DNA of 28,144 bases. It comes from Candidatus Saccharimonadales bacterium. GTDB taxonomy: Archaea > Micrarchaeota > Micrarchaeia > Micrarchaeales > CABMGC01. The notes beneath the pieces are model-generated. The model saw only the letters and a list, made by a program, of their open reading frames with translations. It searched no databases and was not told the DNA's origin. The stretch spans positions 1 through 28,144 of the forward strand of contig DATJMH010000008.1 in NCBI GenBank assembly GCA_035508815.1, read 5' to 3'. The position numbers and the translations under genes were made by a program. Below are positions 6,676 through 22,615 of this stretch, in pieces. Position 1 is the stretch's first letter. Each line of letters opens with the position of its first letter.

Positions 6676-7152
6676 ATGCAAGACCAAGCCCTCAAGTCGT
6701 ACCTGGAGAAACTGGGCATATCCTACAAGGAATACGGGCACAAGCCGGTCTTCACGGTAGACGAGGCCGCATTCCTCAAGAATGAGATTCCGGGCATGCA
6801 CACGAAGAACCTCTTCCTCAAGGACGACAGGGGGAATTTCTACCTGGTATGCATTGCAGCTGAGAAACGCCTTGACATGAAGGCGCTCAGGAAGCGCCTA
6901 GGAGCGGGCAAGCTGCAGTTCGCGACTCCTGAAGAGATGAAGGCAGAGCTGAACCTCACCCCAGGAAGCGTCTCGCTGTTCGGAATCATATACTCAAAGA
7001 GGACCAGGCTGCTTCTTGACAAGGATATATGGGATGCTGCCATCGTATCCTTCCACGCGAACATAAACACAGAAACTCTTGAATTAAGGCATGAGGGTTT
7101 GGAGAAGTTCTATAATTCACTAAGAAACGCAAAGGAAATTATGGTCATCTAA
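6676..7152 (+). CDS. YbaK/ProX family aminoacyl-tRNA editing protein (ProXp-ala/PrdX-like)
   Basis: HKPVFTV, TKNLFLKD, LNLTPGSVSLFG and FHANINT patterns in a 158-aa stand-alone domain. Confidence 0.85.
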   Translation: MQDQALKSYLEKLGISYKEYGHKPVFTVDEAAFLKNEIPGMHTKNLFLKDDRGNFYLVCIAAEKRLDMKALRKRLGAGKLQFATPEEMKAELNLTPGSVSLFGIIYSKRTRLLLDKDIWDAAIVSFHANINTETLELRHEGLEKFYNSLRNAKEIMVI

Positions 7153-7228
7153 GTTCTATACAAACACAAAAATGTCTATTTAAAGTTATTCGGTAAGGCT
7201 TAAGAACCATAAAAATTAGAAAACAGTC

Positions 7229-8377
7229 ATGGGAACAGCTACCAGAAGAGACCTTTATCTAGAGAAGCCGGTTTTGCTAGCAGGACAGCCTAAAAGGACC
7301 ATAGCCGAATATGCAAGCCAGAACGGAATACTCGTACCACGAATATTTGATTCTTTAATTGAGGCAAAACGTTTTGGACTACCTATAATTGCCAGAAGCG
7401 AGCATACCCAAGACTATAATGGTTCATCAGATCTATTCGCAAGTAAGGTGTTAAGAGAAGGCAATAGATTTAGCGGACTTAACGAGTCAGAACTGAAAAA
7501 AGCATTAGATAAGTATAATTTCCACACAGAGAAGCACTGCGATTTGCTCGGAATACACTTTGAGGAGTTCAAGAAGCAATTTTCATATTCTTTCTGGGAA
7601 TTTATAGAAGGTTTCCAAATAAGAGTTGTGGCTGACTCTGCAATCAAATCGCGTTATCATATAACTGCTTATAGGAGAAGGCAGGGAGATGGCGAGCCGA
7701 TTCATGATTATTCCTTCTTTGAAAATGGCAACGTAACAAACTTAACATCCTCTCAGATGCCTAATGAACTTCGAGCTAATCTAGCAAGTCTGATAGATAT
7801 TTATGATTCTATAAGAAATCTTGATAAGTTTGACCCTAATCATTGCCCCATAATGGAGTTTGTTACTACACCAGAAGGTAAACATTACTTTTTGCAATAC
7901 CACAGGTCTCGTGACTTCAGCCAGGCATCTTTCCTATTGGACAGAAAACCGATAAAAGACGAGGCAAGAGCCTTATTTGTCAGAGGAGCAACTCCTCCTG
8001 AAGGCATCACCTGCAAGGTAACTGTAGCTTATGGATGGATAGGCGGCACTGCAAAGTGTAGGCTTCCGAAAGTTGAACAGGGTGCTTTCGATTTTCATAG
8101 TACCGCAGCCTACTCGGAGATTATGGTTCGGAGGAGGCGCCTGCAAATAACAGATTCTGACGACTTAAAATCAGAAATGGAAGAATTTGTTGAGGGCCAC
8201 GGAAGGTATTCAAGATTAATTAAACCAGAAATTTCTGTAATTCTAGACGCTGGGAGGATCTTATCTAAAACTGAGAAGACCAAGCTGGAAAGGCAGGCGG
8301 AAAAGGAAAGCCATGATGTTTATATAAATGTTCATCTGACTTCAGATGGGAGCATCGCCTATCTTAGACGTGCATAA
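7229..8377 (+). CDS. Hypothetical protein, possible divergent ATP-grasp/PEP-synthase N-terminal-like fold; AT-rich
   Basis: 382-aa ORF. LVPRIF...PIIARSE...DYNGSSDLFAS and MEFVTTPEGKHYFLQ resemble PPDK_N-type ATP-grasp motifs. Codon usage is visibly more A/T-ending than its neighbours. Confidence 0.55.
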   Translation: MGTATRRDLYLEKPVLLAGQPKRTIAEYASQNGILVPRIFDSLIEAKRFGLPIIARSEHTQDYNGSSDLFASKVLREGNRFSGLNESELKKALDKYNFHTEKHCDLLGIHFEEFKKQFSYSFWEFIEGFQIRVVADSAIKSRYHITAYRRRQGDGEPIHDYSFFENGNVTNLTSSQMPNELRANLASLIDIYDSIRNLDKFDPNHCPIMEFVTTPEGKHYFLQYHRSRDFSQASFLLDRKPIKDEARALFVRGATPPEGITCKVTVAYGWIGGTAKCRLPKVEQGAFDFHSTAAYSEIMVRRRRLQITDSDDLKSEMEEFVEGHGRYSRLIKPEISVILDAGRILSKTEKTKLERQAEKESHDVYINVHLTSDGSIAYLRRA

Positions 8378-8408
8378 GTAAGACCATTAAGACGAATTAA
8401 CCAAGTAA

Positions 8409-8777
8409 TTAAACCTTGAACCTTGATCTTTCAGTCAGCTCGTACATGTTGCCGTCAGGCGCAATGAAGTGCATCCACCTGTTCCCCTTACCGTCGCCGT
8501 ATATCTCGCCGCACTTTATCCCGTTAGCGCGCAGCTCCTCGGTGCCTTTTTCTATGTCTTCCACAAGGAAGCCGGCCACGGGCGCAGTGGGGAAGAACTT
8601 GGCGTCCTCCCTGTCCATTCCGAAGACCTCGACGAGGTCGCCCCTTTCCGTCTTGAAGACGTTGAAGTCCTCCTCCTGGTGCACAAGCTTCATGTTCATT
8701 GTCTTGCTGAACATGCTGGAGAGCGCACCGAAGTTCCTGGTCCTGGAGCCCAGCCATGCAATCCCTATGACCTTCAT
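8409..8777 (-). CDS. VOC/glyoxalase-like family protein
   Basis: 122 aa with the paired beta-alpha-beta-beta-beta pattern: GFLVEDIEKGTEEL...G, FIAPDGNMYELTE. Confidence 0.85.
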   Translation of the reverse strand: MKVIGIAWLGSRTRNFGALSSMFSKTMNMKLVHQEEDFNVFKTERGDLVEVFGMDREDAKFFPTAPVAGFLVEDIEKGTEELRANGIKCGEIYGDGKGNRWMHFIAPDGNMYELTERSRFKV

Positions 8778-8789
8778 GATACCACAAGC

Positions 8790-9614
8790 TCAGTTCTGCG
8801 ACTCGAAGTGCTTCCTCAGCTCCTCCATTTCCATCACCCTGTAGTTCAGCCCATGGACTATGTGGAGCTCCCTCCCGACTATCCTCGAGATGCTCAGGTC
8901 AAAGGCGTTGAACACGGTCTGGAGATGGCTGAGCTGCTCGGTCAGGAGGTCGGTGGCCTCCTTCTCGCTGACCCCTACGGAAGTGCTCTCTATGTACATC
9001 GTGCTGTACGTCGGCATCTCGCCGTCCGATATCCTGTCTATCCTGGTCTGGACTATGTTTATCTTCCTCTGCAGCTCCCTTATGGTCAGCTCGTTCGGCG
9101 TGGTCGCTCCCTCCTCCTTGGAGAGCTGGAACTCCACGTAGCCCCGCTGGCCCTCGAGGTCCTCCCTGTACTTCTGGACGTCCTCGGCAGAGGAGATGAG
9201 GTTGAACTTGAACGGGAAGTTGGTGTTCATCACTATGCGCTCCCAGTTGTCCGGCGCCTCGGAGAGCCCATCCCCCTTCTCGGCCTCGGCGTTCTCCGCA
9301 GCGAAGACGTACTTGTAGACGTTCGCTGTCAGGTATCCTGTGGCGTAGTAGAGCCCGTTGACGTACTTCAGGACGCAGTTCTGCGACTTCGGCACCCTGT
9401 GGTCCTTGGAGAGCATTATCTCCACGTTCAGGTACTTGGTCAGGAGCGGGAAGACCAGGAAGTCGGCAAAGTTCATGATGAATATTATGCCGAGTATCAG
9501 GACCCCGAGTATTATTATCGGAAGGCTCATGAAGCCGTAGTTGGGCGCGCTGGCAAGCACCAGCACCACCACCGCCGCGGAGGCTCCCATGTAAAGAACA
9601 GTATCTATATCCAT
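8790..9614 (-). CDS. Membrane protein with 2 N-terminal TMs and a cytoplasmic coiled-coil domain (PrgI/TrsD-like candidate)
   Basis: 2 TMs followed by a soluble domain with a central coiled coil. Paralogous to 9614..10423 and coupled to it by a TGATG overlap. Confidence 0.7.
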   Translation of the reverse strand: MDIDTVLYMGASAAVVVLVLASAPNYGFMSLPIIILGVLILGIIFIMNFADFLVFPLLTKYLNVEIMLSKDHRVPKSQNCVLKYVNGLYYATGYLTANVYKYVFAAENAEAEKGDGLSEAPDNWERIVMNTNFPFKFNLISSAEDVQKYREDLEGQRGYVEFQLSKEEGATTPNELTIRELQRKINIVQTRIDRISDGEMPTYSTMYIESTSVGVSEKEATDLLTEQLSHLQTVFNAFDLSISRIVGRELHIVHGLNYRVMEMEELRKHFESQN

Positions 9615-10423
9615 CAGGCTCCACTCATTGTCTTCTGGCGTATCCTCTCGCTGACTGTCTCGACCGGTATCATGTACTCCGGCTCCAGGAGGGTCAGCAG
9701 CTCGCTGCCCTTGGCCACGTAGGCATTCACGCCGAGAGTGGCGCTTATCCCTCCGGCAAGCTCCTCGGCCCTCTGGTAGGCTATGTTAGAGGCCTCCTCG
9801 TCGTTGCCTCCCAGCGCGCTGACCATGGCGAAGAGCACCAGGGCCTGCGAGTGCGACTTGCTCACGCTGTCAAGTAGGTTCCTCCACATGGTCACCTCCC
9901 CCCTCGCCCTCTCCATCCCGCCGCGATGCTGGTCCCCATCCACGCTCTGCATGCTCCTGTACTTCTCCTCGGTCTCGTTGAGCATGGCGCGCAGCTTTGT
10001 TATGTACTGGTCCTTGTTGACCGCATACATCTCCGCCGAGAGCTTCATGGGCGTCTTCCCCAGGGTGAGTATCCTGCCGAACAGCTTCGAGAGGTCGGCC
10101 TTCTCCTCCTTGTTCATCTCGGTGCCGGACCTGTAGATCGGTATCTTTATGAATGCGCTTGCATAGACGTTCTGGCCCTCCCTCCTCACTATCGAGTTCC
10201 CCGAAGGCGCCATCGTGAAAGCCTCCCCGCCGTATATGACGAGGTTGGCTCCCTTCTTCTTGACAACCGACTCAAACATGTAGATGTAGTTCTTGGTGAG
10301 GAACGCGACAAGGGCCGCGAGCATGGCTATTATCGCCAGCGCCGCGCTCAGGAGGTGTATGCTCACCACCTCCGACGCGACCGTTATCATTATGGCCACG
10401 CCTATGCATATCCCGAAGAGCAT
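9614..10423 (-). CDS. Membrane protein with 2 N-terminal TMs and a cytoplasmic coiled-coil domain (PrgI/TrsD-like candidate)
   Basis: Same architecture as 8790..9614, with a similar C-terminal segment (VSALGGNDEEASNIAYQRAEEL vs TSVGVSEKEATDLLTEQLSHL). The start may lie further upstream (see findings). Confidence 0.7.
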   Translation of the reverse strand: MLFGICIGVAIMITVASEVVSIHLLSAALAIIAMLAALVAFLTKNYIYMFESVVKKKGANLVIYGGEAFTMAPSGNSIVRREGQNVYASAFIKIPIYRSGTEMNKEEKADLSKLFGRILTLGKTPMKLSAEMYAVNKDQYITKLRAMLNETEEKYRSMQSVDGDQHRGGMERARGEVTMWRNLLDSVSKSHSQALVLFAMVSALGGNDEEASNIAYQRAEELAGGISATLGVNAYVAKGSELLTLLEPEYMIPVETVSERIRQKTMSGA

Positions 10424-10481
10424 CAGTTGGGTGTTGGGTATCTAAGCACCATTCTCCTATGCCACGTGAAAACTTATATTG

Positions 10482-11591
10482 CTATAGCCTTATCCTTCCG
10501 GAGAGCTGCGCCATGCCGCCTATGAACTCCGCGACCTGGAGTATTATCGCGTAGGTCAGCGCCATTATCAGCGCCGGGTAGAAGAGCACCGAGAGCCAGT
10601 AGGAGTCCATGCAGACCTGTATGTTGCCCAGCGTCTGCTCGAGAGGCGAGGTCGCAGTAAGCGCGTTGGTCTGCGCGCCGGTCCCGAGGCCGTACTGGGT
10701 CAGCGCGGTGGTGGCCTCGCCCGTGCACTGGATGGTCTGCGTGTTTGTGAAGTAGTAAGCTACCGAGAACAGGAGCGGAAGCACCATGTAGAACCCTATG
10801 GCCACGGCTATCATCATGCCTCCCAGCCCCCTTGTGGGTATCAGCGACCTGAGGATGACCCCGGGGATCAGGAAGACGGGTATCGCGATGTACATGAATG
10901 TCAGTATTATCCAGAACTCCGCGTAGAGCACCCCTATGACCTCGAGCTGGAGGTCTATCATGACAAGCGCCGGGATGTAGAACGCGCCGTATATCGCATA
11001 GTAGAAGAGCTGGGGCACTACCGCGCAGTCGTTGGCGTTCGGCGGAGGGTATCCTGTGATGCCCAGCAGGGGGTTCGGGACCAGCGGCGGGCAGAAGTAG
11101 AACTTGACGTTCAGCCAGAACCCGTCCAGGGCCGCTATGTTGAAGAGCTGGGAAATCTCGGCGTTGAGCTGGGTGATGGTGTTGCTTATGTACGTCAATG
11201 CCACGTTGTACGGATTGACGGGCCCCGTGGCTATTCCAGGTATCAGCCCGAACATCACGCTGGCTATGAAGACGAAGCCTATGACTATTATGGCGCTTGC
11301 CGCCGCCTCGTAGTACTCGCCAATGCCGAAGTTCCTTATCCTCTCGCTCCTCAGGAGGACGCCCATCCCGAATATCACGCTCGCTATGCCGAAGGAGATG
11401 AAGACCGCTATGAAAGCCACCGGCTCCCACTGCTCCCAGTAGTTCGCGAGCGCCTGGTTTATCTGGCTGCAGTACCAGGGCGCGGTGCCCTGCACCGCCG
11501 GGGCGCATGCCGCGGTATCGGCGCCGAGCGGATGCAGGGCTAGCAGCACGAGCACCAGGGCCGGAACCAATATCTTTGCGAGTCTATCCAT
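10482..11591 (-). CDS. VirB6/CedA-like polytopic membrane protein, paralog 6 of 6
   Basis: Signal/TM, Cys loop, RIRNFGIGEYYE motif, PGVILRSLIPTRGLGGMMIAVAIGFYMVLP motif and a C-terminal TM ending IGG. The ORF is clear; the family call is inferred. Confidence 0.7.
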   Translation of the reverse strand: MDRLAKILVPALVLVLLALHPLGADTAACAPAVQGTAPWYCSQINQALANYWEQWEPVAFIAVFISFGIASVIFGMGVLLRSERIRNFGIGEYYEAAASAIIVIGFVFIASVMFGLIPGIATGPVNPYNVALTYISNTITQLNAEISQLFNIAALDGFWLNVKFYFCPPLVPNPLLGITGYPPPNANDCAVVPQLFYYAIYGAFYIPALVMIDLQLEVIGVLYAEFWIILTFMYIAIPVFLIPGVILRSLIPTRGLGGMMIAVAIGFYMVLPLLFSVAYYFTNTQTIQCTGEATTALTQYGLGTGAQTNALTATSPLEQTLGNIQVCMDSYWLSVLFYPALIMALTYAIILQVAEFIGGMAQLSGRIRL

Positions 11592-11598
11592 TGTAGCA

Positions 11599-12687
11599 CT
11601 AAAGAATCCTCTCCAGCATCGAGAGGAGATCCATCCTTTCTCCTATAGCCTGTGAAAAGTCAACTATAAAGACGTCGACTATGACAAGGTTTATCAGCGG
11701 TATGAGCGTCAGCCCTATCCAGACCAGCCCCACGTATATGAAGACGGGCTCAGGCACCGTGGTCGCGGTTGTAGTATACACGGAGCCGCCCAGCGCGAAG
11801 AGGCCCGCGAGCCCGGAGCTCGTGTATGTGGTTACAAGCGGAGGCAGGAACCAGATGGCGCTCAGCGCAGCGCCGTTCGCGAAGGCTAGCGACTGCGCCT
11901 GGTCAAGCCCGTAGTTTATGAAGCCGTAGTTCATGCAGACAAGCGCAGGGAAGACCACCCCGAGCCCCAGCGCGAAGGCTATCATGGCGCCGCCGAAGGT
12001 CCTGCTGACCCCGAATATCCTGGCGACCAGGCCCAGCGACATCAGTATTGCGAAGATCAGCGCCGACGCTGAGAGCATTATCAGCTGGACGTCGTTCGCG
12101 AGCGCGAAGGCGTAGATGAAGTCTATTGCGGGGCCCAGGTACTTGAAGCCCGTGTCCTTGGGGTAGAATGAGAAGGGAGCGGCGAGCCCTATGCTGCCCC
12201 CTGCCACAGGTATGTCGATCCTTATGTTGTAGCTGGGCTGGAGGGAGACTGCGACCAGGACGAAATAATACTGCGCGTTGTTCAGGTTCGCGGTAAAGAC
12301 GTTGAACTGGTACATGTCGCATATCGAGAGCGAGTAGATGTTGCCCATCGCGCCGGTGCATTCGTTCGGCACCAGGTTGTAGGTGTTTAGGAAGTTCAGG
12401 TTTGTGCCGTATATTAGGCTCGCAGCGAAGAGGAACGCGAATATCAGGAGCAGGGAGAGCATCACGTCGTATATCTTCACCCTGGTCCAGGACCGTATGT
12501 CGCTCCTGCCGACGAACTGGCTGATCCCGTATATCAGCGCCAGCACCGCCAGCACCGCGAGTGCTGCAAGCGCAGAGACCGAGAACCAGGCCTGGTAGGT
12601 GGAGTTGAAGCAGCTTCCAATCCCCGCAGCGGCGCATGTGCTGGTCGCAAGGAGGAATGAGTGCAATAAGGCGAGGTCTACTATCAT
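11599..12687 (-). CDS. VirB6/CedA-like polytopic membrane protein, paralog 5 of 6
   Basis: DIRSWTRVKIYD and LGLVARIFGVSRTFGGAMIAFALGLGVVFP motifs. ATGA overlap with the upstream paralog. Confidence 0.7.
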   Translation of the reverse strand: MIVDLALLHSFLLATSTCAAAGIGSCFNSTYQAWFSVSALAALAVLAVLALIYGISQFVGRSDIRSWTRVKIYDVMLSLLLIFAFLFAASLIYGTNLNFLNTYNLVPNECTGAMGNIYSLSICDMYQFNVFTANLNNAQYYFVLVAVSLQPSYNIRIDIPVAGGSIGLAAPFSFYPKDTGFKYLGPAIDFIYAFALANDVQLIMLSASALIFAILMSLGLVARIFGVSRTFGGAMIAFALGLGVVFPALVCMNYGFINYGLDQAQSLAFANGAALSAIWFLPPLVTTYTSSGLAGLFALGGSVYTTTATTVPEPVFIYVGLVWIGLTLIPLINLVIVDVFIVDFSQAIGERMDLLSMLERIL

Positions 12688-13970
12688 ATTATCCTCTCAA
12701 ACAGCCTGTTGCTCTGGAGAGACGGCGAGCCGAGCAGGTCGCCCAGCGCCTCCAGGAGGTCGAAAGATATTACAAAGGAGATGCCCAGCCCAATCAGCTT
12801 GCCTATGGCTATGGCGACCACCTCCACGTAGACGTCGAGGTTATTGATGAAAGGCGTGCCTCCACCTGTGAAGTCGCTGAAGACCGCGTTGAGGAAGGAC
12901 CATGCCTTGGAGAGGATGCTCTGCGTGAGGAAGGCCCAGGTACTCTGGCTCGTGGGAAGGTTCTGGCCCTGGCAGTTGCCCGCCACAAAACCTATCACGT
13001 CTGCAGCGATGTCGGATGTTGCGGCCATCGTGCAGGCAAATGATCCCGCGTTCGAGGCCGTCGCGTCGGTCTGCGGCACCACGGCCAGCGCCGAGAACGG
13101 GAAGTAAAGCGCTGGGAAGATGATGTAGAATGAGATGAACAGCGCGAGGAAGGAGCCTCCCGCGGCGCGGGTCCATGGGAAGGAGCGGAAGAGTATCCCG
13201 GCGTAGAGGAATATCGGGAAGAGGAAGTATATGACGTAGAACATGAAGATGGTGGCCACTCCGAGTATGACTATGATGAACACCGGGGACTCCTCAAAGA
13301 GGATCAGCTGGTAGAAGAGCGCCAGCCCTCCCAGCGGAGTGATGGTGAAGCTCGGCGCGTAGTTCGCTATCGAGGGACCGAAGTTGACCGAGATGACAAG
13401 GCTGGTCGCTATATCGTACAGCGGCTGGATTATGAGGGTGCCCACGAAGACGCCGAGGAGCGGCAGGATCTGCCCATCCAGGACGTTGGTGCATATGCTG
13501 GTGTAGAGCGTCTTCACGTTGCCGGTGCCTATCCCGCCGGTCTGCGAGACCCCGCCAAGGTTGGCCAGGTTGGAGAAGAACGCGGCGAAGCCCCCCACAG
13601 TGGCAAGGCCCCCGATTATCACGAGTATCATCAGGAGGTTGAAGAAGCTCTCAACGTATTCCGTCTTCGCGAAATCCACTAGCTTGTTTATGCCGAAGCC
13701 CCTGCCTATGCCGTAGACCGCAGAGATCACCACCAGGACCATCAGCACTATGAGGAGCGCCAGGTCGGCAACGCTCTGGAATATGCTACCGGTCCCCGGA
13801 GTGAATGCATTAGTAACTATTGCCCCCCCGGGCCCAGAAGACCCGGCGACCTGGTTGTTGAAGAGGTCGGTGCAGTACTGGTTCTGCACCGGCCCTGTTG
13901 ATGATGCCGCACTCGCTGTAGTGACCAGCAGCGCGAAGACGGCAAGATACAATATCAGTCTGTTCCTCAT
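12684..13970 (-). CDS. VirB6/CedA-like polytopic membrane protein, paralog 4 of 6
   Basis: KLVDFAKTEYVE and AGILFRSFPWTRAAGGSFLALFISFYIIFP motifs. Confidence 0.7.
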   Translation of the reverse strand: MRNRLILYLAVFALLVTTASAASSTGPVQNQYCTDLFNNQVAGSSGPGGAIVTNAFTPGTGSIFQSVADLALLIVLMVLVVISAVYGIGRGFGINKLVDFAKTEYVESFFNLLMILVIIGGLATVGGFAAFFSNLANLGGVSQTGGIGTGNVKTLYTSICTNVLDGQILPLLGVFVGTLIIQPLYDIATSLVISVNFGPSIANYAPSFTITPLGGLALFYQLILFEESPVFIIVILGVATIFMFYVIYFLFPIFLYAGILFRSFPWTRAAGGSFLALFISFYIIFPALYFPFSALAVVPQTDATASNAGSFACTMAATSDIAADVIGFVAGNCQGQNLPTSQSTWAFLTQSILSKAWSFLNAVFSDFTGGGTPFINNLDVYVEVVAIAIGKLIGLGISFVISFDLLEALGDLLGSPSLQSNRLFERII

Positions 13971-13977
13971 GCAACCA

Positions 13978-15474
13978 CTAAAGCAGCCTGCTTATTCCGA
14001 ACAGGCTCGTGTCCCCTCCCAGTACCGTTGATATGCCCTTGACTGCGGAAAGCAGCATCAAGATGTTGAATACCGGGAGCAGCAGAGTGAATACGAACAC
14101 CTGGCCGTAGAAGTTCGAGAGCGCAAGCCATGTCCTCTCCATGTTCGCTGGCGAGCAGTTGAATCCCGGAATGTCTGGCTCCGGCAGCGTCCCGGAGAAG
14201 GTGCCCACTGTATCCCTTATGGCAAGGTAGAGGCCTACCCCCGGGACTGAATACGAGCCCCCGAGAAGCGCCTCTGCCTCGAGCACGCTTCCGTTGGGCG
14301 GCCAGCAGCCGTAGTAGTTGATGATGTAGTCTATCCTCGGGAAGACGTAGAAGTTTATCTTGCTGGTGTCGTAATCTATCTTCGGGTTGGGGTTCGAGCT
14401 TCCAGGCAGCCAGCTGCCTATGGTGAATGCTTGAGGCTCCTGGCCGGTGAGGGTCATGGCTGGGAAAGCGGTCGAGGTCGCGCCGACGGCTGTCAGCGGG
14501 CTCGTCGCGTTGGTGAGCGAGGCGTACTCGAACAGGCTGAGTATAGGATATAGGAACATGCCCACAAGCACTATCGCTATCACCATTCCGCCGGCCCTGC
14601 GCGTGAACGACGACGCCCTCATTATCAGCCCCGCGGCCAGTATGTACGGCCAGCCGAAGAGCATCAGCATTATGAGCAGCATCTGGAGAAGGCCCATGTA
14701 GAACGCCAGCTGAGACTCCGTGTTCACATATATCGTACCGGCCCTCAGCTTGGTGTAGAACTGGAAGGGGGTGTAGCTGTAGACTGCGGTCGGGCCTCCG
14801 TACGGGTACGCAATGCACGGGGCGTTGGGCTCCGACATGCAGACTATCTCGGTCGGCGTGAAGGTGGCCAGCACGTAGAAGTACGTCTCATAGACGTTGA
14901 GGATGTCGAGGCTGAACGCCTCCTGGCTGGTCAGGTTGGCCGTTATGACATACGTCTCACCGAGGCCGAAATCTATGTTCTGCGTCGGGTCCCTGCTGCC
15001 CTGCGACGAGCTACCGCCGTTTATTATCTGCGAGCAGACGGCCATCGTGGGTCCGGGTATCATGGTGTTGGTGATGTCGAGCTGCGAGCCGGCGAGCTGC
15101 GTGCATATGTTCTTCACGCTGGTGGTCACCCCGGTGGCTCCGGAATAGACCGCGCTGCCATACACGTTGAATATCATTATCACTATGACAAGCACGACCA
15201 CGGTGCCTGTGACCTGGGCGAACTCGTTTATCGCCGCGGCCTTGAGCCTGCTGTTGCCCAGGAGCACCGCGGCCGCGTAGTACATCAGGGAAACCATGAT
15301 CCCCAGCATGGTGGCTAGGATGATCACGGGCATCCACGTATAGAAAGCCGAGACGTCTGTCGTCAGCGGGCAGGTGGTGGCGCCGGGGCATGGGTTGGTC
15401 ACCCCGGAAGAGTCGGCGATCACGGCCGAGAGAGACAGCAGCACGAGCACCAGTGCGAGAGTGAACTTCCTCAT
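13978..15474 (-). CDS. VirB6/CedA-like polytopic membrane protein, paralog 3 of 6
   Basis: RLKAAAINEFAQ and AGLIMRASSFTRRAGGMVIAIVLVGMFLYP motifs. Largest extracellular loops of the set. Confidence 0.7.
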   Translation of the reverse strand: MRKFTLALVLVLLSLSAVIADSSGVTNPCPGATTCPLTTDVSAFYTWMPVIILATMLGIMVSLMYYAAAVLLGNSRLKAAAINEFAQVTGTVVVLVIVIMIFNVYGSAVYSGATGVTTSVKNICTQLAGSQLDITNTMIPGPTMAVCSQIINGGSSSQGSRDPTQNIDFGLGETYVITANLTSQEAFSLDILNVYETYFYVLATFTPTEIVCMSEPNAPCIAYPYGGPTAVYSYTPFQFYTKLRAGTIYVNTESQLAFYMGLLQMLLIMLMLFGWPYILAAGLIMRASSFTRRAGGMVIAIVLVGMFLYPILSLFEYASLTNATSPLTAVGATSTAFPAMTLTGQEPQAFTIGSWLPGSSNPNPKIDYDTSKINFYVFPRIDYIINYYGCWPPNGSVLEAEALLGGSYSVPGVGLYLAIRDTVGTFSGTLPEPDIPGFNCSPANMERTWLALSNFYGQVFVFTLLLPVFNILMLLSAVKGISTVLGGDTSLFGISRLL

Positions 15475-16689
15475 CTAACTACCCCAGAACGGCCCTATGC
15501 CGAAGATCTGTCCCATCGCCTCGAGGCTCTTGTGGAGCCCAACTGCGAAGCCTATCGTTATCCCGACGTCAAGAGCTATAAGGAAGATGGCCTGGAACAG
15601 GTACTGCGCAGTCTCCATCACGAAGTTGTTAAGCAGGCTTGGCACGCTCACGAGCCCCTGGAAGATCTCGCTCACAGCGGCCAGGAACCCGCCGCTGCCC
15701 TGCGCCTGGAACGAATAGAAGTTGGTCCAGACATTGATAAGGGCTCCGATTCCGGAGATGCTGGCGGTGCTGGCGTACTCCGGGTTGGTGAAGAGCTGGT
15801 TTATGGGCAGGTTGTTCAGCTGGTATCCCGGGTTCAGGTACGGGGTCGCATAGGGGTTGCACGAGCCCCCGTTTATGCAGTACGTCCAATTGACGACGTA
15901 GTAATTCATCGCGAGGGTGAGCGGGAAGACGAAGTAGAAGGCTATGGCTATGGCCACCAGGCCGTTGGACACCTCCCTGAGCTTGGGCCCGGTGAATGCC
16001 AGGGAGCGCATTATTATCGCGACCGGTATGACCAGGGTGAGTGCCAGCGCCTCTATGACGTTGAGCGAGAGGAAGATCACGAACAGGAGGCCGAAGCTCA
16101 CCACCACCAGCGGCGCGAGCACCGTGTTGAGGACGTAGCTGTACTCGTATATAACGGTCGCCGGCTCGTCAGTGCCCGTTATCGCTATCTTCAGCCCCGT
16201 CCCGGAGTTCCTGATGGGGACGGCCTGCCCAATCTCCGACACGAAGAAGTTCACCAGTGTCGCATCGACCATCAGCACGGTGCCTGCGGAGAAGAGCCCG
16301 GTGACCAGGGCTATGCCCTTGGCGAACATGAGGTTGCCTATGTAGTAGCTTGCGAACTGGAAGGGATCCTGGTAGTTGAGCGGCGCCGCAGCGGTGCCGA
16401 CCAGGGCGCTGCCTATGCTGCACGCGCTGAACGAGAGCGTGAAGAGGACGATTATCAGTATTATGCTGAATATTCCTTGTATGTACTCGTACTTCACCAC
16501 ACCGCGTACCCTCTCCCTGGTGTTTCCCGGGAAGAGGCCGCTCAGCCCGTAGGCCATGGCGCTTATCATGAGCGACATCACAACCACGAGCGCAGTTATG
16601 GAGAGCCAGTTGTTGTTGTTCAGGAAGCTTATGTTGTATGCGCACTGTGACAGGAAGGTGCTCGACGATGAGAGGAGGAAGCCGATCAT
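15475..16689 (-). CDS. VirB6/CedA-like polytopic membrane protein, paralog 2 of 6
   Basis: RVRGVVKYEYIQ and PVAIIMRSLAFTGPKLREVSNGLVAIAIAFYFVFP motifs. Its stop directly abuts the next ATG. Confidence 0.7.
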   Translation of the reverse strand: MIGFLLSSSSTFLSQCAYNISFLNNNNWLSITALVVVMSLMISAMAYGLSGLFPGNTRERVRGVVKYEYIQGIFSIILIIVLFTLSFSACSIGSALVGTAAAPLNYQDPFQFASYYIGNLMFAKGIALVTGLFSAGTVLMVDATLVNFFVSEIGQAVPIRNSGTGLKIAITGTDEPATVIYEYSYVLNTVLAPLVVVSFGLLFVIFLSLNVIEALALTLVIPVAIIMRSLAFTGPKLREVSNGLVAIAIAFYFVFPLTLAMNYYVVNWTYCINGGSCNPYATPYLNPGYQLNNLPINQLFTNPEYASTASISGIGALINVWTNFYSFQAQGSGGFLAAVSEIFQGLVSVPSLLNNFVMETAQYLFQAIFLIALDVGITIGFAVGLHKSLEAMGQIFGIGPFWGS

Positions 16690-16691
16690 AG

Positions 16692-18062
16692 CTACACCAG
16701 TTTGAGCCTCCTTCCCAGACCCAGCCTCGTGGTCCCTCCGAGCATCCTCGCTATGTTGTTGGTGAGCGCGTAGAAGAGCATCAGGTCGAGCACCAGCATG
16801 ACGAAGAGCTGCAGTATCAGGTATATCCCGTATTTGACGAAGAGGTTGAGCGCCGGGTAGAGGTCGCTTATGGAGTCGAACGCGAGGGTAAACTCAAGCT
16901 TCCCGTTCGTCCATGCCTGCCCGACGAAGGAGAGGGCCTGGTTGAAAACACCCGTGATCAGGTTGGACTGGTCCGGCGCCGCAGCTGCTGAAGTGCTGCC
17001 CGTAAGCGCCTGGGTCACCGTGTTCGGATCCGGCCCTAGCGGCGTGCAGAAGCTGTTGCTGCCTCCGCTAAGTATGCTGCAGAAGTAGCTCGAGACCGGC
17101 GCATTGAAGAGTATCAGTATGCCTGGCCATATGAGCGCGAACCCGATGCCGTAGGCTATCAGCGAGCCCCCTATCCCCCTGGTCAGAGGGAGCGCCCTGA
17201 ATACCAGCCCGATAGGTATGAGTATGGTCAGGCCTATGGTGATGAAATACGGGAGCAGGATGACCTGGCCCGCGTATATGAGCTTGACCGGCACCAGCAG
17301 GAAGAGTATGAAGTCTATGAAGATAGACTGCCACTGGCCCAGGTAGATGTAGTTGACGTTGGCAAGCAGGCTTGCGAATATGTAGAAGTCCACCCCGGAC
17401 CTGAAGACGGGAAGGTATGGCGTGAACGTAACAGGCAGCCCAGCATAGGTTATCCTTATGCCGTTGTTGTTGTCCTGGTTCTCTATGATCCCAAGCCCTA
17501 TGACCAGAGGCGCTATGTTGTCTATCCCGAAATTGGCCTCGTTATTCACGGTGCAGAGGTAGCTCTCTGCGCTGTAGGTCAGGTCGTTGATGTTTGTGGC
17601 CACGGGCCCTGAAACAGGGGTGCCGCTCGACGGCTGGCCGCTGAGGATAACACCTATTCCGCTCACAAGCGTTATAACGGAGAATATCACCGCTATCAGT
17701 ATCGCCGACTTGGTGATCTCCCAGTACTCCCTGGGCAGCCAGTTCCTTATGTTTGTCGATGGAACAAGCCTGCTTATTATGTATCCCAGGCCCACTATGT
17801 CGAATGAAACCATCAGGCCTATCAGCGCGGCTATCACCGCATCCTGGAAGACATTCGCCGGGAACCCGGCAAAGCCCGGGATCTGCGTGGGCGCAGTGCT
17901 AGGACCGCCGCTTCCCGTGCCGCCGAAGATGTTAGTGCATTCCTGTGTCGGCGTGACAAGGGTTGTGGTGGCGGTCGTATCTGCCATGATGCCGGAGAGC
18001 ATGACCCCCACAAGAACTAAAGAGAGCACCATGTAGGGTCTCAGTCTCCCCGGATTCGGCAT
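16692..18062 (-). CDS. VirB6/CedA-like polytopic membrane protein, paralog 1 of 6
   Basis: NIRNWLPREYWE and PIGLVFRALPLTRGIGGSLIAYGIGFALIWP motifs. Confidence 0.7.
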   Translation of the reverse strand: MPNPGRLRPYMVLSLVLVGVMLSGIMADTTATTTLVTPTQECTNIFGGTGSGGPSTAPTQIPGFAGFPANVFQDAVIAALIGLMVSFDIVGLGYIISRLVPSTNIRNWLPREYWEITKSAILIAVIFSVITLVSGIGVILSGQPSSGTPVSGPVATNINDLTYSAESYLCTVNNEANFGIDNIAPLVIGLGIIENQDNNNGIRITYAGLPVTFTPYLPVFRSGVDFYIFASLLANVNYIYLGQWQSIFIDFILFLLVPVKLIYAGQVILLPYFITIGLTILIPIGLVFRALPLTRGIGGSLIAYGIGFALIWPGILILFNAPVSSYFCSILSGGSNSFCTPLGPDPNTVTQALTGSTSAAAAPDQSNLITGVFNQALSFVGQAWTNGKLEFTLAFDSISDLYPALNLFVKYGIYLILQLFVMLVLDLMLFYALTNNIARMLGGTTRLGLGRRLKLV

Positions 18063-18082
18063 GACTGATTATAAAATCATAA

Positions 18083-18090
18083 GCTATAAA
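18083..18090 (-). promoter_or_regulatory. TATA box for the paralog operon (probably leaderless mRNA)
   Basis: TTTATAGC on the minus strand about 20 nt upstream of ATG 18062. Confidence 0.5.
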
Positions 18091-18193
18091 TAAGCGTTAT
18101 CCGAGAGCCGACATCAGGATACAGAGCACACCCCATATCCCTGTTGTAGTGCAGTTCGCAGCGCTTGAGGCAAGCCACAGGCACGGGGCCCGT

Positions 18194-20023
18194 TCAGCCC
18201 TCCTCGTTCTCCGCGGAGGCGGCTCCCTTGCCCTTGTTCTTCTTCGCTTCAAGAGAGGACTCGTCATCTGCCTTGCCCTCGTTCTTCCCGGTTTCTGCAG
18301 GCCTTCCCCTCTCAACCACCACTGGGTGGTGCTTTATCTCATGAACCTCGGCATGGCCTCCATGGCTTCCGGCGGCCTTCTGCATGGCAGCGTCTTCTGC
18401 GACATCGCTCGCGAACTTCTCGCTGAACTTCTTCGGGTCATAGGAATTAGCAATCACTTTCAGACGAGCATTCTCTGCCGCATTATACGACTTGAAGACT
18501 CCGCCTCGCCGCTTCCTCTGCATGTCAAAGTTCGGGATGTAGTCGGGCTTGTAACTTTTGTCAAGACTTGCCCTGAGCTGCTGGAACCTTGCCACTGCGG
18601 CCTCTCCGGTGGCGATTGCGGCGGCAGGCACCGTGGCACCTACAAGTGCCGCGTTGTCCTTCGCAGTTGAGACGCTCTCAGCCAGGCTCGGTTTTTCGGG
18701 ATAAAGTCTGTCGTAGGTCTGATTGAATATGGCCTTGTGCTGGTCATCGCTTATCTCGCCCTTCATCAGCTTTATGTTCTCAACTTCCAGCTTCTTGACG
18801 CCCTCGTCCAGCTCCTTCTTCCTCTTCTCCATGCCCTCCACTCTCGCATTGATGACGTCGTTCTCGTGGCTGAGCTCCCTAGTCTGCTTTGCGGCCTCGG
18901 TGGGGCTTAGTTTTTCGTCCTTAGCGATCTTGCTTATCTTCTCGTTGTTCTCCGCTATCGCACCCTTCTGCTTGGCTATTACCTTATTCAAGTGCTCCTC
19001 TTCCGCCTTGAATATCGTTTTCTTCAGCTTCGGAGGATTGGAATTCAGCTTGCTGAGGCCATAAACGCCCAGCGGCCCGAGTACCGGTACCCTCGGTCCG
19101 GTGAAGGCGGCGCCCTCCTTGGTGGCCGTCCATGCATCTCCAAGGGTCTTGAACTTCCACTGTTTTACCTGGGCCATCTTCTGGTTCTTTACCTGCTCCT
19201 CCTTGCTCAACACCCTCACTCTGGGAACGCCGGAAGAGTCATCCGTCTTAACCCCGGGATTCCTGACGGGTATCTTTGTAATCCTTGTGAACAATACGGG
19301 CCTGGGGGCTGCGCCCTTGACAGGCACACGCTTGAAGCCTATCGGTATCTTTCCCAGGACTGCGACCACTCCTGCCGCTGCACTCCTCGTCCCCTTTCCT
19401 GCTATCACCTTAGGCGCCATCATCGCAGCTCCTGCCGCCCCGGTGCCTGCCGCCATCTTAACAGGTCCTCCGGTTTCAGTTGCCGCCCCCCTGCTCCTCT
19501 TTCCTGTTATTACCTTGGGCGCCATCCCTGCCACCCCGCCCACGGCAGCCGTGGTGCCTGCTGCCATCTTAACCCATCCTCCGCTTCCGGCAGCCATCCT
19601 GCCCTTCTTCCCTCCTATCACCTTCGGGCTCATGCCAGGCCCTCTGCCTCCCGTCGGGTTGGGCATCGCCGCAAGCATGGCAAGCCGGGATCCCTCCCTG
19701 AGGTTATTCCTGGCCACCTTCTTCTGCATCCCGGTAGGCCCTCCGCCTCTCCTGCGCCTGAAGAATATTCCCCTCTGGCTCTCTATTCCAGCTCCTTTCG
19801 GTGCGTCGAGATAGGTCCTCAGCGGGAACCCGGATTTCGCCATGCCGCCCCTGGAGCCGCCTCCAACCGAGCCCATGCCCCCAAGGAGCGAGGCGACGCC
19901 GAAGAGGTTGAACAGGCTGAACCCCCTCGTGGCCCCGGCAGCAGCCGCTATCAGCACTATGATCACCATTATCGGCACTAGCGCGTTAAGGTTCCCTACT
20001 GACAGGATCGGAGGTAAAAACAA
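18194..20023 (-). CDS. Membrane-anchored basic Gly/Ala/Lys-rich protein with tandem repeats and a coiled coil
   Basis: TTG start, N-terminal hydrophobic segment(s), low-complexity basic region, heptad-like stretch (HLNKVIAKQ...KLEVENIKLMK) and a charged tail. Confidence 0.75.
   Translation of the reverse strand: MFLPPILSVGNLNALVPIMVIIVLIAAAAGATRGFSLFNLFGVASLLGGMGSVGGGSRGGMAKSGFPLRTYLDAPKGAGIESQRGIFFRRRRGGGPTGMQKKVARNNLREGSRLAMLAAMPNPTGGRGPGMSPKVIGGKKGRMAAGSGGWVKMAAGTTAAVGGVAGMAPKVITGKRSRGAATETGGPVKMAAGTGAAGAAMMAPKVIAGKGTRSAAAGVVAVLGKIPIGFKRVPVKGAAPRPVLFTRITKIPVRNPGVKTDDSSGVPRVRVLSKEEQVKNQKMAQVKQWKFKTLGDAWTATKEGAAFTGPRVPVLGPLGVYGLSKLNSNPPKLKKTIFKAEEEHLNKVIAKQKGAIAENNEKISKIAKDEKLSPTEAAKQTRELSHENDVINARVEGMEKRKKELDEGVKKLEVENIKLMKGEISDDQHKAIFNQTYDRLYPEKPSLAESVSTAKDNAALVGATVPAAAIATGEAAVARFQQLRASLDKSYKPDYIPNFDMQRKRRGGVFKSYNAAENARLKVIANSYDPKKFSEKFASDVAEDAAMQKAAGSHGGHAEVHEIKHHPVVVERGRPAETGKNEGKADDESSLEAKKNKGKGAASAENEEG
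19383..19640 (-). repeat. Intragenic tandem repeat, about 3 copies of 105-111 bp (35-37 aa)
   Basis: PKVI codons recur at + positions 19404, 19509 and 19617. GGTGCCTGC(C/T)GCCATCTTAAC occurs at 19442 and 19553. Confidence 0.85.
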
Positions 20024-20054
20024 TCAGCCACCACTAAACCTACAGCATCTCAAA

Positions 20055-20062
20055 TTTATAAA
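20055..20062 (-). promoter_or_regulatory. TATA box for 18194..20023
   Basis: Palindromic TTTATAAA about 30 nt upstream of TTG 20023. Confidence 0.55.
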
Positions 20063-20075
20063 TCCTCTGACTGGC

Positions 20076-22481: not shown

Positions 22482-22615
22482 ACACCTACAAATACCAACT
22501 AACTTCTTCTTTTGAAACAAGACCCGTACAAGCGGCTCTTCTGAATCTGTGTTATCGGACCAGTAACAAAATATATATACCTAATTACTCCACTAGCTAG
22601 CATAGGAAGGATTTG

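Follow-up and report, generated by a model that had tools for sequence, protein, structure and literature searches.

What kind of machine do nine consecutive membrane-protein genes of a micrarchaeon encode? The window analysed here, a stretch of 28,144 nucleotides, comes from a Micrarchaeota metagenome-assembled genome of 475 kb that is about 50% complete, and the only sequencing run found to hold its DNA is that of the source metagenome. An earlier note, made from the sequence alone, read the genes as a chromosomal, non-mobile machine similar to type IV secretion systems (T4SS) and to the archaeal Ced system, in a probable host-dependent archaeon; the organism is indeed a tiny, host-dependent DPANN member of Micrarchaeota. 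We found no published description of this nine-gene system of Micrarchaeota, which is apparently unpublished.

Organization and conservation of the locus

Reading the sequence, we found nine intact open reading frames, all co-oriented on the minus strand (Table 1), as the earlier note had described. The tight junctions that it reported are present at six of the eight boundaries: g2/g1 overlap by one base (ATGA), g5/g4 overlap by 4 bp, and the gaps are 0 bp at g7/g6, 2 bp at g8/g7 and 7 bp at both g4/g3 and g6/g5. The exceptions are g3/g2 (58 bp) and g9/g8 (131 bp). Because TATA-like boxes precede both g8 and g9, g9 is probably a transcription unit of its own, apart from g8-g1, and the box TTATTTATAG probably serves as promoter for a leaderless transcript covering g8-g1.

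Table 1. Genes and putative promoter elements of the locus (positions within the window)
Feature	Position	Strand	Size or location	Description
g1	8790-9614	-	274 aa	2-TM hairpin + cytoplasmic alpha/beta domain
g2	9614-10423	-	269 aa	2-TM hairpin + cytoplasmic alpha/beta domain
g3	10482-11591	-	369 aa	polytopic paralogue 1/6
g4	11599-12687	-	362 aa	polytopic paralogue 2/6
g5	12684-13970	-	428 aa	polytopic paralogue 3/6
g6	13978-15474	-	498 aa	polytopic paralogue 4/6, long external insert
g7	15475-16689	-	404 aa	polytopic paralogue 5/6
g8	16692-18062	-	456 aa	polytopic paralogue 6/6; first gene of the g8-g1 unit
g9	18194-20023	-	609 aa, TTG start	anchored basic Gly/Ala-rich protein
TATA-like box TTATTTATAG	18084-18093	-	~26 nt upstream of g8 ATG	read from sequence
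TATA-like box ATTTATAAATTT	20052-20063	-	~35 nt upstream of g9 TTG start	read from sequence

The polytopic genes g8-g3 followed by the 2-TM genes g2 and g1 form a fixed order across the order, with the exact g8 to g1 arrangement in 28 of 53 loci and near-variants in most others. A positional orthologue of g4 is present in all 22 fetched loci, and the positions of g5 and g6 are likewise conserved among the loci of relatives. The nine genes had been taken as one set; this holds for g8-g1 but not for g9, which is no fixed operon head. In relatives only the N-terminal 60-170 aa of g9 are conserved and the gene lies mostly elsewhere in the genome, while seven other species have a g9-like gene between their orthologues of g3 and g2. 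The protein itself is basic, Gly-rich and anchored, as described before: it has a single N-terminal hydrophobic anchor, 99 Lys and Arg versus 57 Asp and Glu, 12% Gly, 13.5% Ala and three MxPKVIxGK repeats, and it is largely disordered with a coiled-coil part. Our comparisons of g9 with families and folds gave no match. Its place differs from genome to genome, and we class g9 as an accessory component.

Two families of paralogous membrane proteins

Sequence similarity among g3-g8 is weak by BLASTP (about 1e-6), and profile-profile comparison by hhalign relates every pair at 97.2-99.5% (against the other paralogues, 97.3-98.9% for g4, 97.8-99.5% for g5, 97.2-99.2% for g6, 97.2-98.6% for g7 and 98.6-99.5% for g8). 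This establishes them as paralogues, as had been proposed. All six have in common an R-x3-(P)-T-R-x2-G-G motif in the turn that connects two long helices.

Of these, g3 combines a signal peptide and five TM helices with an external helical/beta insert and the conserved cytoplasmic turn (here R-x3-P-T-R-x2-G-G), and its orthologues across Micrarchaeota are 40-68% identical. With its AlphaFold2 model (pLDDT 87), TrwI/VirB6 ranked third among 48,161 chains with 241 of 261 residues aligned, the longest coverage among the top fold matches, at a Z of 9.6 that lies within the chance range for helical bundles. Other matches were DotA (Z 7.8) and TraJ (probability 0.95), and the Foldseek E-value against the PDB was 1.3; VirB6 was absent from the Foldseek matches to Swiss-Prot models, and the fold neighbours in the ESM Atlas all come from Micrarchaeota. 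Furthermore, PF04610 (VirB6/TrbL) finds nothing in the cluster across 41 genomes, and hhalign of the six paralogues against a 121-sequence TrwI profile stays under 1%. Thus, of the suggested likeness to VirB6, TrbL and CedA, some resemblance in fold stands while homology at the sequence or profile level is undetectable. g3 occupies the VirB6/CedA position, and its fold resemblance to VirB6 is moderate.

The 2-TM proteins g1 and g2 are also paralogous, as had been claimed: hhalign matches them at 97.4% (E 1e-11, 226 columns), a similarity to which BLAST is blind. All named ESM Atlas neighbours of g1, which is present in 177 of 201 sampled genomes of the phylum, belong to TraC-like or PrgI families (scores 0.75-0.80), making it a candidate fusion of a VirB3/PrgI-like anchor with a VirB4-N-terminal-like (TraC-like) domain. 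For g2 (model pLDDT 77.5), the top Foldseek matches in the PDB are TrwK/VirB4 of R388 (E 0.037, probability 0.91), VIA places model residues 66-251 onto VirB4 residues 220-380 (Z 7.5), and the Atlas folds are TraC-like (TM 0.58), PrgI (0.50) and VirB4_TrbE_N (0.47). The TraC-like fold occurs also in CdpA-like proteins among the Atlas matches. These results point to the N-terminal/PrgI region of VirB4, as had been guessed for the pair. The complex of g2 with the ATPase described below was predicted with a score of 0.68, and the best of three controls scored 0.01. Scores at that mark were seen for 58 of 80 solved complexes and for 2 of 110 mismatched pairs; the cytoplasmic domain of g2 is therefore predicted to dock on the ATPase.

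A separate motor, a pilin candidate and a compact relative of the cluster

The motor, absent from the window, is present in the genome: a 502-aa VirB4/HerA-clade ATPase is encoded on another contig (C37:9521-11029). It exceeds the cut-offs of DUF87 (50 bits), AAA_10 (43.5) and the TraG P-loop family (39). Among NCBIfam models it comes closest to CedD (2.8e-21), the VirB4-like CD1110 (4.4e-19), CedB, TraC and VirB4_CagE, the alignment always falling in the C-terminal half of the model, and no NCBIfam equivalog cut-off is reached (75.8 bits versus 600; 56.7 versus 700). Alignments to VirB4/TraC/CedD models span more than 300 residues, those to TrwK cover residues 420-703, and tblastn leads to genes annotated traC on conjugative plasmids. 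Likeness to HerA is about equal to likeness to VirB4, the best PDB E-values being to HerA. In these alignments, the ATPase corresponds to the C-terminal motor half of VirB4 only. Its Walker A and B motifs are strictly conserved, identity across the order is 58-86%, and it occurs in 40 of 41 relatives. In 20 of 22 fetched loci and 61 of 72 species loci, the gene right after the g1 orthologue is that of the ATPase; array and ATPase are unlinked in the window's genome, its genus and distant families, and we infer that the genus-level separation of the modules on C22, C8 and C37 arose by rearrangement.

A search of the genome for a pilin located a VirB2-like candidate on contig C22. The pilin-like protein of the large cluster (up157) has a T4SS_pilin match (E 1e-4 to 3e-4), and a pilin from a compact cluster of relatives has one to TrbC/VirB2 (E 4e-6), both below the Pfam cut-offs. 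By hhalign, residues 31-81 of g7 match up157 (84%) and residues 38-87 match the compact-cluster pilin (85%), a resemblance of the N-terminal helix region of g7 to pilin-like proteins.

The compact cluster consists of the pilin, one polytopic protein, one 2-TM protein, an ATPase and a coiled-coil protein. Its components match those of the large cluster by hhalign: the polytopic protein matches g3 (99.5%, E 3e-23), the 2-TM protein g1/g2 (99.2%; E 9e-20 with g1), the ATPase its counterpart (100%), the pilin up157 (94%) and m225 the downstream protein dn3 (98%), which has weak ZapB/MreC-like coiled-coil matches. The two clusters are collinear and homologous component by component, which makes the large one an expanded version of a simple VirB2/VirB6-position/VirB4 module. 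Two pilin-like genes occur in some families, and a large membrane-anchored glycoprotein is located after the ATPase module.

A probable T4SS-related machine and its alternatives

With a probability of roughly 60%, we read the locus as the membrane core of a chromosomal machine driven by a VirB4/HerA-clade ATPase, related to T4SS and closest to Ced/Ted. The ATPase in the genome, some likeness to the VirB6 fold and the lack of a match to another known system support the T4SS/Ced-like reading of the earlier note. In the literature, Ced and Ted are described as domesticated T4SS and the N-terminus of VirB6 as similar to the pilin (PMC9905601). The Ced system of Sulfolobales (CedA/CedE, CedA1, CedA2, CedB/CedD) is likewise chromosomal, non-mobile, T4SS-derived and found in a single-membrane archaeon (PMC11868833, PMC9905601), with a small two-helix pilin, a polytopic channel-position protein that has a paralogue (CedE, a paralogue of CedA) and a HerA/VirB4-clade ATPase. 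CedB and CedD each unite the ATPase with a TM segment and a VirB4-like N-terminal domain (PMC11868833). Both systems have two paralogous units with VirB4-N-terminal-like domains, and CedD is the best NCBIfam match of the micrarchaeal ATPase. In Micrarchaeota, in contrast, the TM and N-terminal-domain unit is separate (g1, g2), the ATPase comprises no more than the C-terminal motor, six paralogues occupy the channel position, g3-g8 lack detectable sequence similarity to known families, and the ATPase scores below the equivalog cut-offs; DNA import is the function of Ced. Ted of Thermoproteales also combines a signal-peptide VirB2-like pilin (TedC), a VirB6-position protein (TedA), a VirB4-like ATPase (TedB) and accessory genes in one locus, its T4SS link being visible only by profile or structure methods (PMC9905601), and differs by a single TedA and a full-length TedB, without a six-fold array or split motor.

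The best solved structural match is the R388 inner-membrane complex (TrwM/VirB3, TrwK/VirB4, TrwI/VirB6; PDB 7o3v, 7o41, 8rtd), in which the g2 domain resembles the TrwK N-terminal domain, g3 TrwI and the ATPase the TrwK motor region; all these matches are weak (E 0.04-1.3, Z 7.5-9.6, TM 0.3-0.4), with no sequence-profile similarity to TrwI. The organism, in contrast, has one membrane only, and VirB5, VirB7-B11, VirD4 and relaxase were unseen among the scanned neighbours. Duplicated VirB6-position genes in host-dependent organisms are also found in Rickettsiales rvh (PMC2653234, PMC7648143) and Bartonella Trw (two distinct TrwI proteins lie on one Bartonella contig), but those copies are recognisable by PF04610 and belong to two-membrane bacteria, whereas the six of Micrarchaeota are very old, non-PF04610 and in fixed order. 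Patescibacteria/CPR carry a near-universal, chromosomal, non-conjugative, VirB4-centred T4SS in ultra-small episymbionts, whose PrgI/VirB3-like and VirB6-like partners are reported to be important for epibiotic growth (PMC12102498); that system is bacterial (MPF-FATA lineage), with full-length VirB4 and single HMM-detectable VirB6 homologues.

The near-universality and unusually high conservation of the ATPase would also fit an essential function in a lineage-specific housekeeping machine of the envelope (division, membrane or S-layer biogenesis, chromosome handling), with a HerA-type ATPase that has only ancient P-loop ancestry in common with T4SS and six paralogues of a novel fold unrelated to VirB6. 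The HerA matches in the PDB, the missing sequence link to VirB6, the exclusively micrarchaeal fold neighbours of g3, the TraC-like fold in CdpA-like (cell division protein A) clusters (PMC12126565) and the ZapB/MreC-like matches of dn3 lean the same way. We consider this unlikely, given that the collinear compact cluster starts with a TrbC/VirB2-like pilin, that the large cluster owns a pilin-like gene, that the ATPase has long alignments with VirB4/TraC/CedD models and with the traC genes of plasmids, that the top matches of g2 are VirB4, and that variable, sequon- and Cys-rich outer loops suggest a role in surface interaction. A VirB2-like filament serving host attachment, with no substrate passage, is quite improbable: in T4SS, Ced and Ted, pilus formation and transfer go together and nothing here separates them, and six channel-position paralogues plus a basic accessory would be superfluous for a simple filament, even though both clusters are headed by pilin-like genes, some families have two, a large glycoprotein follows the ATPase module, and the pilins of Ced and Ted assemble into pili (PMC9905601).

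Polytopic proteins in one operon of a nutrient-dependent organism might instead form a multi-subunit small-molecule transporter. This is very improbable, as we found no family or fold match to transporters or to any other known system, and the partner ATPase is of the FtsK/HerA/VirB4 pumping class, not ABC or P-type. Least credible is an integrated conjugative element or plasmid, although such elements typically carry VirB4-like ATPases and VirB2-like pilins and Golyshina et al. speculated on conjugative elements in a micrarchaeon (PMC5498576). The cluster is chromosomal and, as the earlier note held, non-mobile: no integrase, relaxase, transposase or coupling protein was seen among the Pfam-scanned neighbours, the flanks are housekeeping genes (RNR, TatD, tRNA editing), GC content agrees with that of the remaining window except for a separate low-GC patch, gene order has been conserved vertically, and orthologues extend through most of the phylum.

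In the T4SS-related machine that we favour, g1 and g2 would supply the membrane anchor and N-terminal domain, which VirB4, CedB and CedD have in one chain with the motor, and would tether the hexameric ATPase to the membrane. A channel or platform would be built from the six polytopic paralogues, perhaps arranged around the motor in single copies, with the conserved Arg/Gly turns on their cytoplasmic side directed at the motor and their variable, Cys- and sequon-rich loops directed outward. The pilin-like protein of C22 would be assembled on this platform, and g9 may be a variable accessory whose basic tail lies in the cytoplasm. The machine would most likely serve for ATP-driven passage of DNA or another macromolecule, pilus assembly, or both, across a single membrane at cell-cell contacts.

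Taken together, the system is most likely a heavily remodelled relative of bacterial conjugation machines and of the archaeal Ced DNA-import machines, and it provides a concrete candidate for how Micrarchaeota cells exchange material with other cells.

The nine-gene array and its neighbourhood

The array comprises nine intact ORFs on one strand, numbered g1 to g9 from the lowest to the highest coordinates, in agreement with the earlier note, which had described nine co-oriented membrane-protein genes. At 6 of the 8 junctions the genes overlap or are separated by 0-7 bp, as the note had also stated for most of them, the exceptions being g3/g2 (58 bp) and g9/g8 (131 bp). Both g8 and g9 are preceded by a TATA-like box, about 26 nt before the ATG of g8 and about 35 nt before the TTG of g9, and, together with the junction spacing, these boxes suggest that g8-g1 forms one tight unit and g9 a separate one. 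By hydropathy, g1, g2 and g9 each have one or two helices at the N-terminus, and g3-g8 at least five TM segments. No usable match to any of the nine proteins was found in Pfam and NCBIfam, nor to g3-g8 in Pfam at E values up to 1; the Pfam set searched left out PF27251 (CedA1), PF26593 (TraC-like) and PF26592.

Both the six polytopic proteins (g3-g8) and the two 2-TM proteins (g1 and g2) had been proposed to be paralogues. BLASTP similarity among g3-g8 is weak (best about 1e-6), and hhalign with orthologue alignments from 22 related loci returns 97.2-99.5% for every pair of the six and 97.4% (E 1e-11, 226 columns) for g1 against g2, which upholds both proposals. In all six polytopic proteins two long helices are joined by an invariant R-x3-P-x-R-x2-G-G turn, and external Cys/Trp positions are conserved as well. 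The remaining protein, g9, is basic, Gly/Ala-rich and mostly disordered, without family, fold or Atlas neighbour in the Pfam, NCBIfam, fold and Atlas searches, and its conservation is limited to the N-terminal anchor. Because g9 homologues lie mostly elsewhere in relatives' genomes or, in seven other species, between the g3 and g2 orthologues, we consider g9 a recurrent accessory of variable position. Upstream of g9, a giant exported sequon-rich protein is encoded on the opposite strand.

Coordinates of the array, its neighbours and related features (C numbers are other contigs of the same genome; G numbers are genomes; L numbers are fetched loci)
Feature	Location	Strand	Remarks
Low-GC patch	window 7001-8400		39% against about 57%
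382-aa ORF	window 7229-8377	+	in the low-GC patch; no Pfam or NCBIfam match
Small glyoxalase-fold gene	window 8409-8777		comes after the 382-aa ORF
g1-g9 array	window 8790-20023	-
Giant exported sequon-rich protein	window 22613-28144	+	more than 1,843 aa, open at end; 2.6 kb upstream of g9
ATPase	C37:9521-11029		502 aa; orthologue of the 505-aa protein of G032
dn1	C37:9216-9512 (L039)		98 aa; directly after the ATPase gene
up157, pilin candidate	C22:1650-2123		signal peptide and two hydrophobic helices; PF18895 match
Third DUF87-type ATPase with adjoining 313-aa protein gene	C33:11981-14577 (L012/L016)		ATPase 536 aa
Compact cluster	L008:2889-10079; L010:8690-12981; 17 loci L043-L059
p630	L007:5011-6921; L020:1377-3293; others		about 630 aa; several relatives

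The homologues of g3 and g2 are all without names (40-78% identity) and come from records labelled Micrarchaeota or Micrarchaeia. Across 22 fetched loci from the same taxonomic order the genes run g8-g7-g6-g5-g4-g3-g2-g1, and exactly this arrangement recurs in 28 of 53 further species loci with enough flank, near-variants being found in most of the others. Genes of the g1 family occur in 177 of the 201 sampled genomes of the phylum, usually in two copies, and an ATPase orthologue directly follows g1 in 20 of the 22 loci and in 61 of 72 species loci. The best 80 genome loci for this ATPase are all from Micrarchaeota MAGs. Members of the window's own genus have the array and the ATPase on separate contigs, and in the window's genome (475 kb, 46 contigs, about 50% complete, from a wetland metagenome) the pilin candidate, the array and the ATPase module are on three. 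The 382-aa ORF and the glyoxalase-fold gene fill the place downstream of g1 that the ATPase takes in most relatives, so that the region of the low-GC patch looks like a rearrangement breakpoint. In distant families, a g1-like gene, the ATPase, the dn2 and dn3 genes that come after it and a large glycoprotein are kept together as a core, with just one g1-like gene beside the ATPase (L060-L069; genomes G111, G042, G153 and G080), and tandem arrays of 5-6 polytopic paralogues are located away from this core, often two per genome.

A motor probably split between genes

The window itself holds no VirB4/HerA-like ATPase, and the search for one across the genome located it on contig C37. The g1 orthologue of genome G032 has a 505-aa DUF87/AAA_10/TraG-P-loop protein as its immediate downstream neighbour, and orthologues of this protein are present in 40 of 41 relatives (58-86% identity). 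The ATPase scores above the models' own cut-offs for DUF87, AAA_10 and TraG P-loop, and its Walker A (GxxGxGKS) and Walker B (DEAW) motifs are invariant. The nearest NCBIfam models are CedD (2.8e-21), VirB4-like CD1110, HerA, CedB, TraC and VirB4_CagE, with bit scores that stay far below the curated cut-offs (39 against 643 for VirB4_CagE, 51 against 567 for TraC, 76 against 600 for CedD and 57 against 700 for CedB), and the VirB4 family PF03135 has no match in the roughly 50% complete genome. The alignments cover the C-terminal half alone of each VirB4-type model (VirB4, TraC and CD1110), and hhalign maps the ATPase to residues 420-703 of TrwK, the VirB4 of R388. Plasmid genes annotated traC were found by tblastn, and HerA (partial) and the VirB4 C-terminal domain 4ag5 among PDB sequences. 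These matches identify the protein as a VirB4/HerA-clade motor domain that lacks the N-terminal half of VirB4. Its chain has no N-terminal membrane-proximal domain, and a fold resembling that domain was found in g1 and g2 instead.

In its AF2 model (pLDDT 77.5), g2 has two TM helices leading into an alpha/beta domain that contains a helical hairpin. In a Foldseek search of the PDB, TrwK/VirB4 of R388 takes the top three places and 7 of the 14 best (best E 0.037, probability 0.91). VIA-align superposes residues 66-251 of the model on residues 220-380 of TrwK, its N-terminal domain, at Z 7.5 (145-168 residues aligned at Z 7.2-7.5 for this domain), and the matches of higher Z span just the 57-residue hairpin. 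Among the Atlas fold neighbours of g2 are TraC-like (TM 0.58), PrgI (0.50) and VirB4_TrbE_N (0.47) proteins and a CdpA_N+TraC-like cluster (0.51), and all named language-model-feature neighbours of g1 are TraC-like or PrgI, with scores of 0.75-0.80 that serve as leads only. At the sequence level, PF12666 (PrgI) leaves no more than a trace at the g2 N-terminus (E 0.12, 11.8 bits), and hhalign of g1, g2 and the 2-TM protein of the compact cluster described below gave no match to the single sequences of TrwK and TrwM, the VirB3 of R388 (R388 sequences from NC_028464). Collectively, the models argue, with moderate confidence, for two TM helices followed by a VirB4 N-terminal/TraC-like fold in g1 and g2, and the earlier guess of a PrgI/VirB3-like partner of VirB4 thereby gains support at the level of the fold.

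A predicted complex of the ATPase with g2 residues 60-269 scores 0.68, the best of three controls reaching 0.01; for comparison, 58 of 80 solved complexes but just 2 of 110 mismatched pairs attain 0.68. The predicted interface joins the invariant N-terminal residues 12-52 of the ATPase to invariant residues of g2. The prediction thus favours a docking of g2 on the ATPase, which would match the published layout of Ced, where a single chain of CedB or CedD unites the ATPase with a TM segment and a VirB4-like N-terminal domain (PMC11868833).

Further genes were observed around these ATPases. The dn1 product is paralogous to roughly the final 77 residues of the ATPase (hhalign 97.5%, E 5e-12), being a free-standing copy of the C-terminal domain of the motor; 13 of the 22 loci have it. 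After the ATPase module on C37 comes an 801-aa membrane-anchored glycoprotein whose place beside the ATPase is conserved phylum-wide. On contig C33, a third DUF87-type ATPase (E 1.5e-30 with the HMM of the compact-cluster ATPase) lies divergent from the adjoining gene for a 313-aa protein, whose signal sequence is of the archaeal class III (type IV pilin-like) kind.

The polytopic family and the compact cluster

As modelled (pLDDT 87), g3 comprises a signal peptide, five long TM helices and an insert on the external side. An exhaustive search by structure ranked TrwI, the VirB6 of R388 (7o3v), third of 48,161 at a VIA-align Z of 9.6, a value that helical models reach by chance; its alignment, over 241 of 261 residues, was the longest by a wide margin. 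DotA was found at Z 7.8. Against the PDB, Foldseek places TrwI at E 1.3 (probability 0.44, TM 0.31/0.39), which is not significant, and among Swiss-Prot models it returned no VirB6 and nothing above chance. The significant matches among AFDB clusters are multipass proteins without names, and a conjugative-transposon TraJ appears there at probability 0.95 and E 0.38. Over 41 genomes, PF04610 (TrbL/VirB6) at E up to 1 gave three weak matches, none in the cluster. Comparison by hhalign of g3-g8 and the compact-cluster paralogue with a 121-sequence TrwI profile, whose members are at least 51% identical to TrwI, yielded probabilities of 0.5% or less, and the g3 profile found noise only among PDB sequences.

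A seventh polytopic paralogue is encoded elsewhere in relatives' genomes, in a compact cluster that in 19 fetched loci has the order pilin, polytopic protein, 2-TM protein, ATPase (350-460 aa) and m225, with a HerA-like protein (735 aa) further on. Its pilin matches PF04956 (TrbC/VirB2) at E 4e-6, with 27.3 bits against a cut-off of 27.9. Each part is homologous to its counterpart in the large cluster, the order being the same: hhalign gives 99.5% for the polytopic protein with g3, 99.2% for the 2-TM protein with g1/g2, 100% for the two ATPases, 94% for the pilin with up157 and 98% for m225 with dn3. It is this part-by-part agreement in order that argues most strongly for the large cluster being an expanded T4SS/Ced-like module. 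No compact cluster was found in the window's own MAG, which is only about 50% complete. The same genome does contain, on C22, a candidate for the VirB2/CedA1-like pilin that the earlier note had proposed to look for; this gene, up157, matches the T4SS_pilin family PF18895 at E 1e-4 to 3e-4, the C22 copy scoring below the cut-off (2.8e-4, 21.3 bits against 26.6). In several relatives a gene termed p630 lies between a pilin-like gene and the gene up243; its product, with 12 or more TM segments and a C-terminal domain rich in sequons, is without family match and is possibly a glycosyltransferase-like enzyme.

Polytopic genes are flanked, in relatives and in the compact cluster alike, by the gene of a putative VirB2-type pilin on one side and that of a VirB4-type ATPase on the other. 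We therefore describe g3-g8 as occupying the VirB6 position and loosely resembling VirB6, as candidate homologues at most: of the suggestion that they are VirB6/CedA-like subunits, the position holds, the likeness of fold is loose, and neither sequence nor profile comparison gave a link to VirB6/TrbL. The N-terminus of g7 resembles both pilins (hhalign 84-85%), a likeness that recalls how VirB6 and VirB2 have been related in Ced and T4SS (PMC9905601).

A probable Ced/Ted-like machine and its possible role

Taken together, these results point to a Ced/Ted-like machine of the VirB4 clade, in which the motor is split and the channel-position family is six-fold. The T4SS/Ced-like reading of the earlier note is thus supported overall, by the collinear compact cluster with its TrbC/VirB2-like pilin and by an ATPase whose nearest models are CedD and VirB4-like. 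The same genes could be read as a conjugative plasmid or ICE; we reject this mobile-element reading because no relaxase, coupling protein or integrase was found among the scanned neighbours and because the cluster is conserved vertically and not patchily, in line with the note's view of a non-mobile locus without integrase or relaxase. A transporter reading was also rejected, because the searches gave no match to a transporter family or fold and because the partner ATPase is of the FtsK/HerA/VirB4 pumping class and not of the ABC or P-type classes.

Functional parallels to such a machine are provided by the chromosomal T4SS of Patescibacteria (PMC12102498) and by the multiplication of VirB6 in Rickettsiales (PMC2653234, PMC7648143). 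For a micrarchaeon, Golyshina et al. speculated on conjugation-like exchange (PMC5498576), and Johnson et al. described by cryo-ET a barrel-like docking structure of 21 nm in the envelope of the micrarchaeon ARM-1, its identity not being assigned (PMC11329633). The literature search found no paper describing this cluster, and the sequencing-run search returned the source wetland metagenome as the sole run with this DNA, with no RNA run among the matches. To our knowledge, the uptake by DPANN archaea of what their hosts supply has not been tied to any machine.

We hypothesize, at perhaps one chance in seven, that g3-g8 form a one-of-each ring on a hexameric motor that serves as a symbiont-side host-contact uptake port. 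Under this hypothesis, six unlike paralogues would build a pseudo-six-fold ring matching the motor, three g1-g2 pairs would tie the ring to it, and the cell would import host DNA or other cytoplasmic macromolecules by way of the ring, which could be, for example, the docking structure of ARM-1, where host nanotubes arrive (PMC11329633).

The locus names about 15 specific genes, including the motor, the predicted docking pair, the six-member channel-position family and the pilin candidate, which are testable in existing Micrarchaeota co-cultures by tagging, purification, imaging and depletion. The cluster would represent an unusual course of T4SS evolution, in which VirB4 is split into three genes and the channel-position protein is multiplied six-fold, with the simple paralogous cluster within the same genomes as a built-in comparison.
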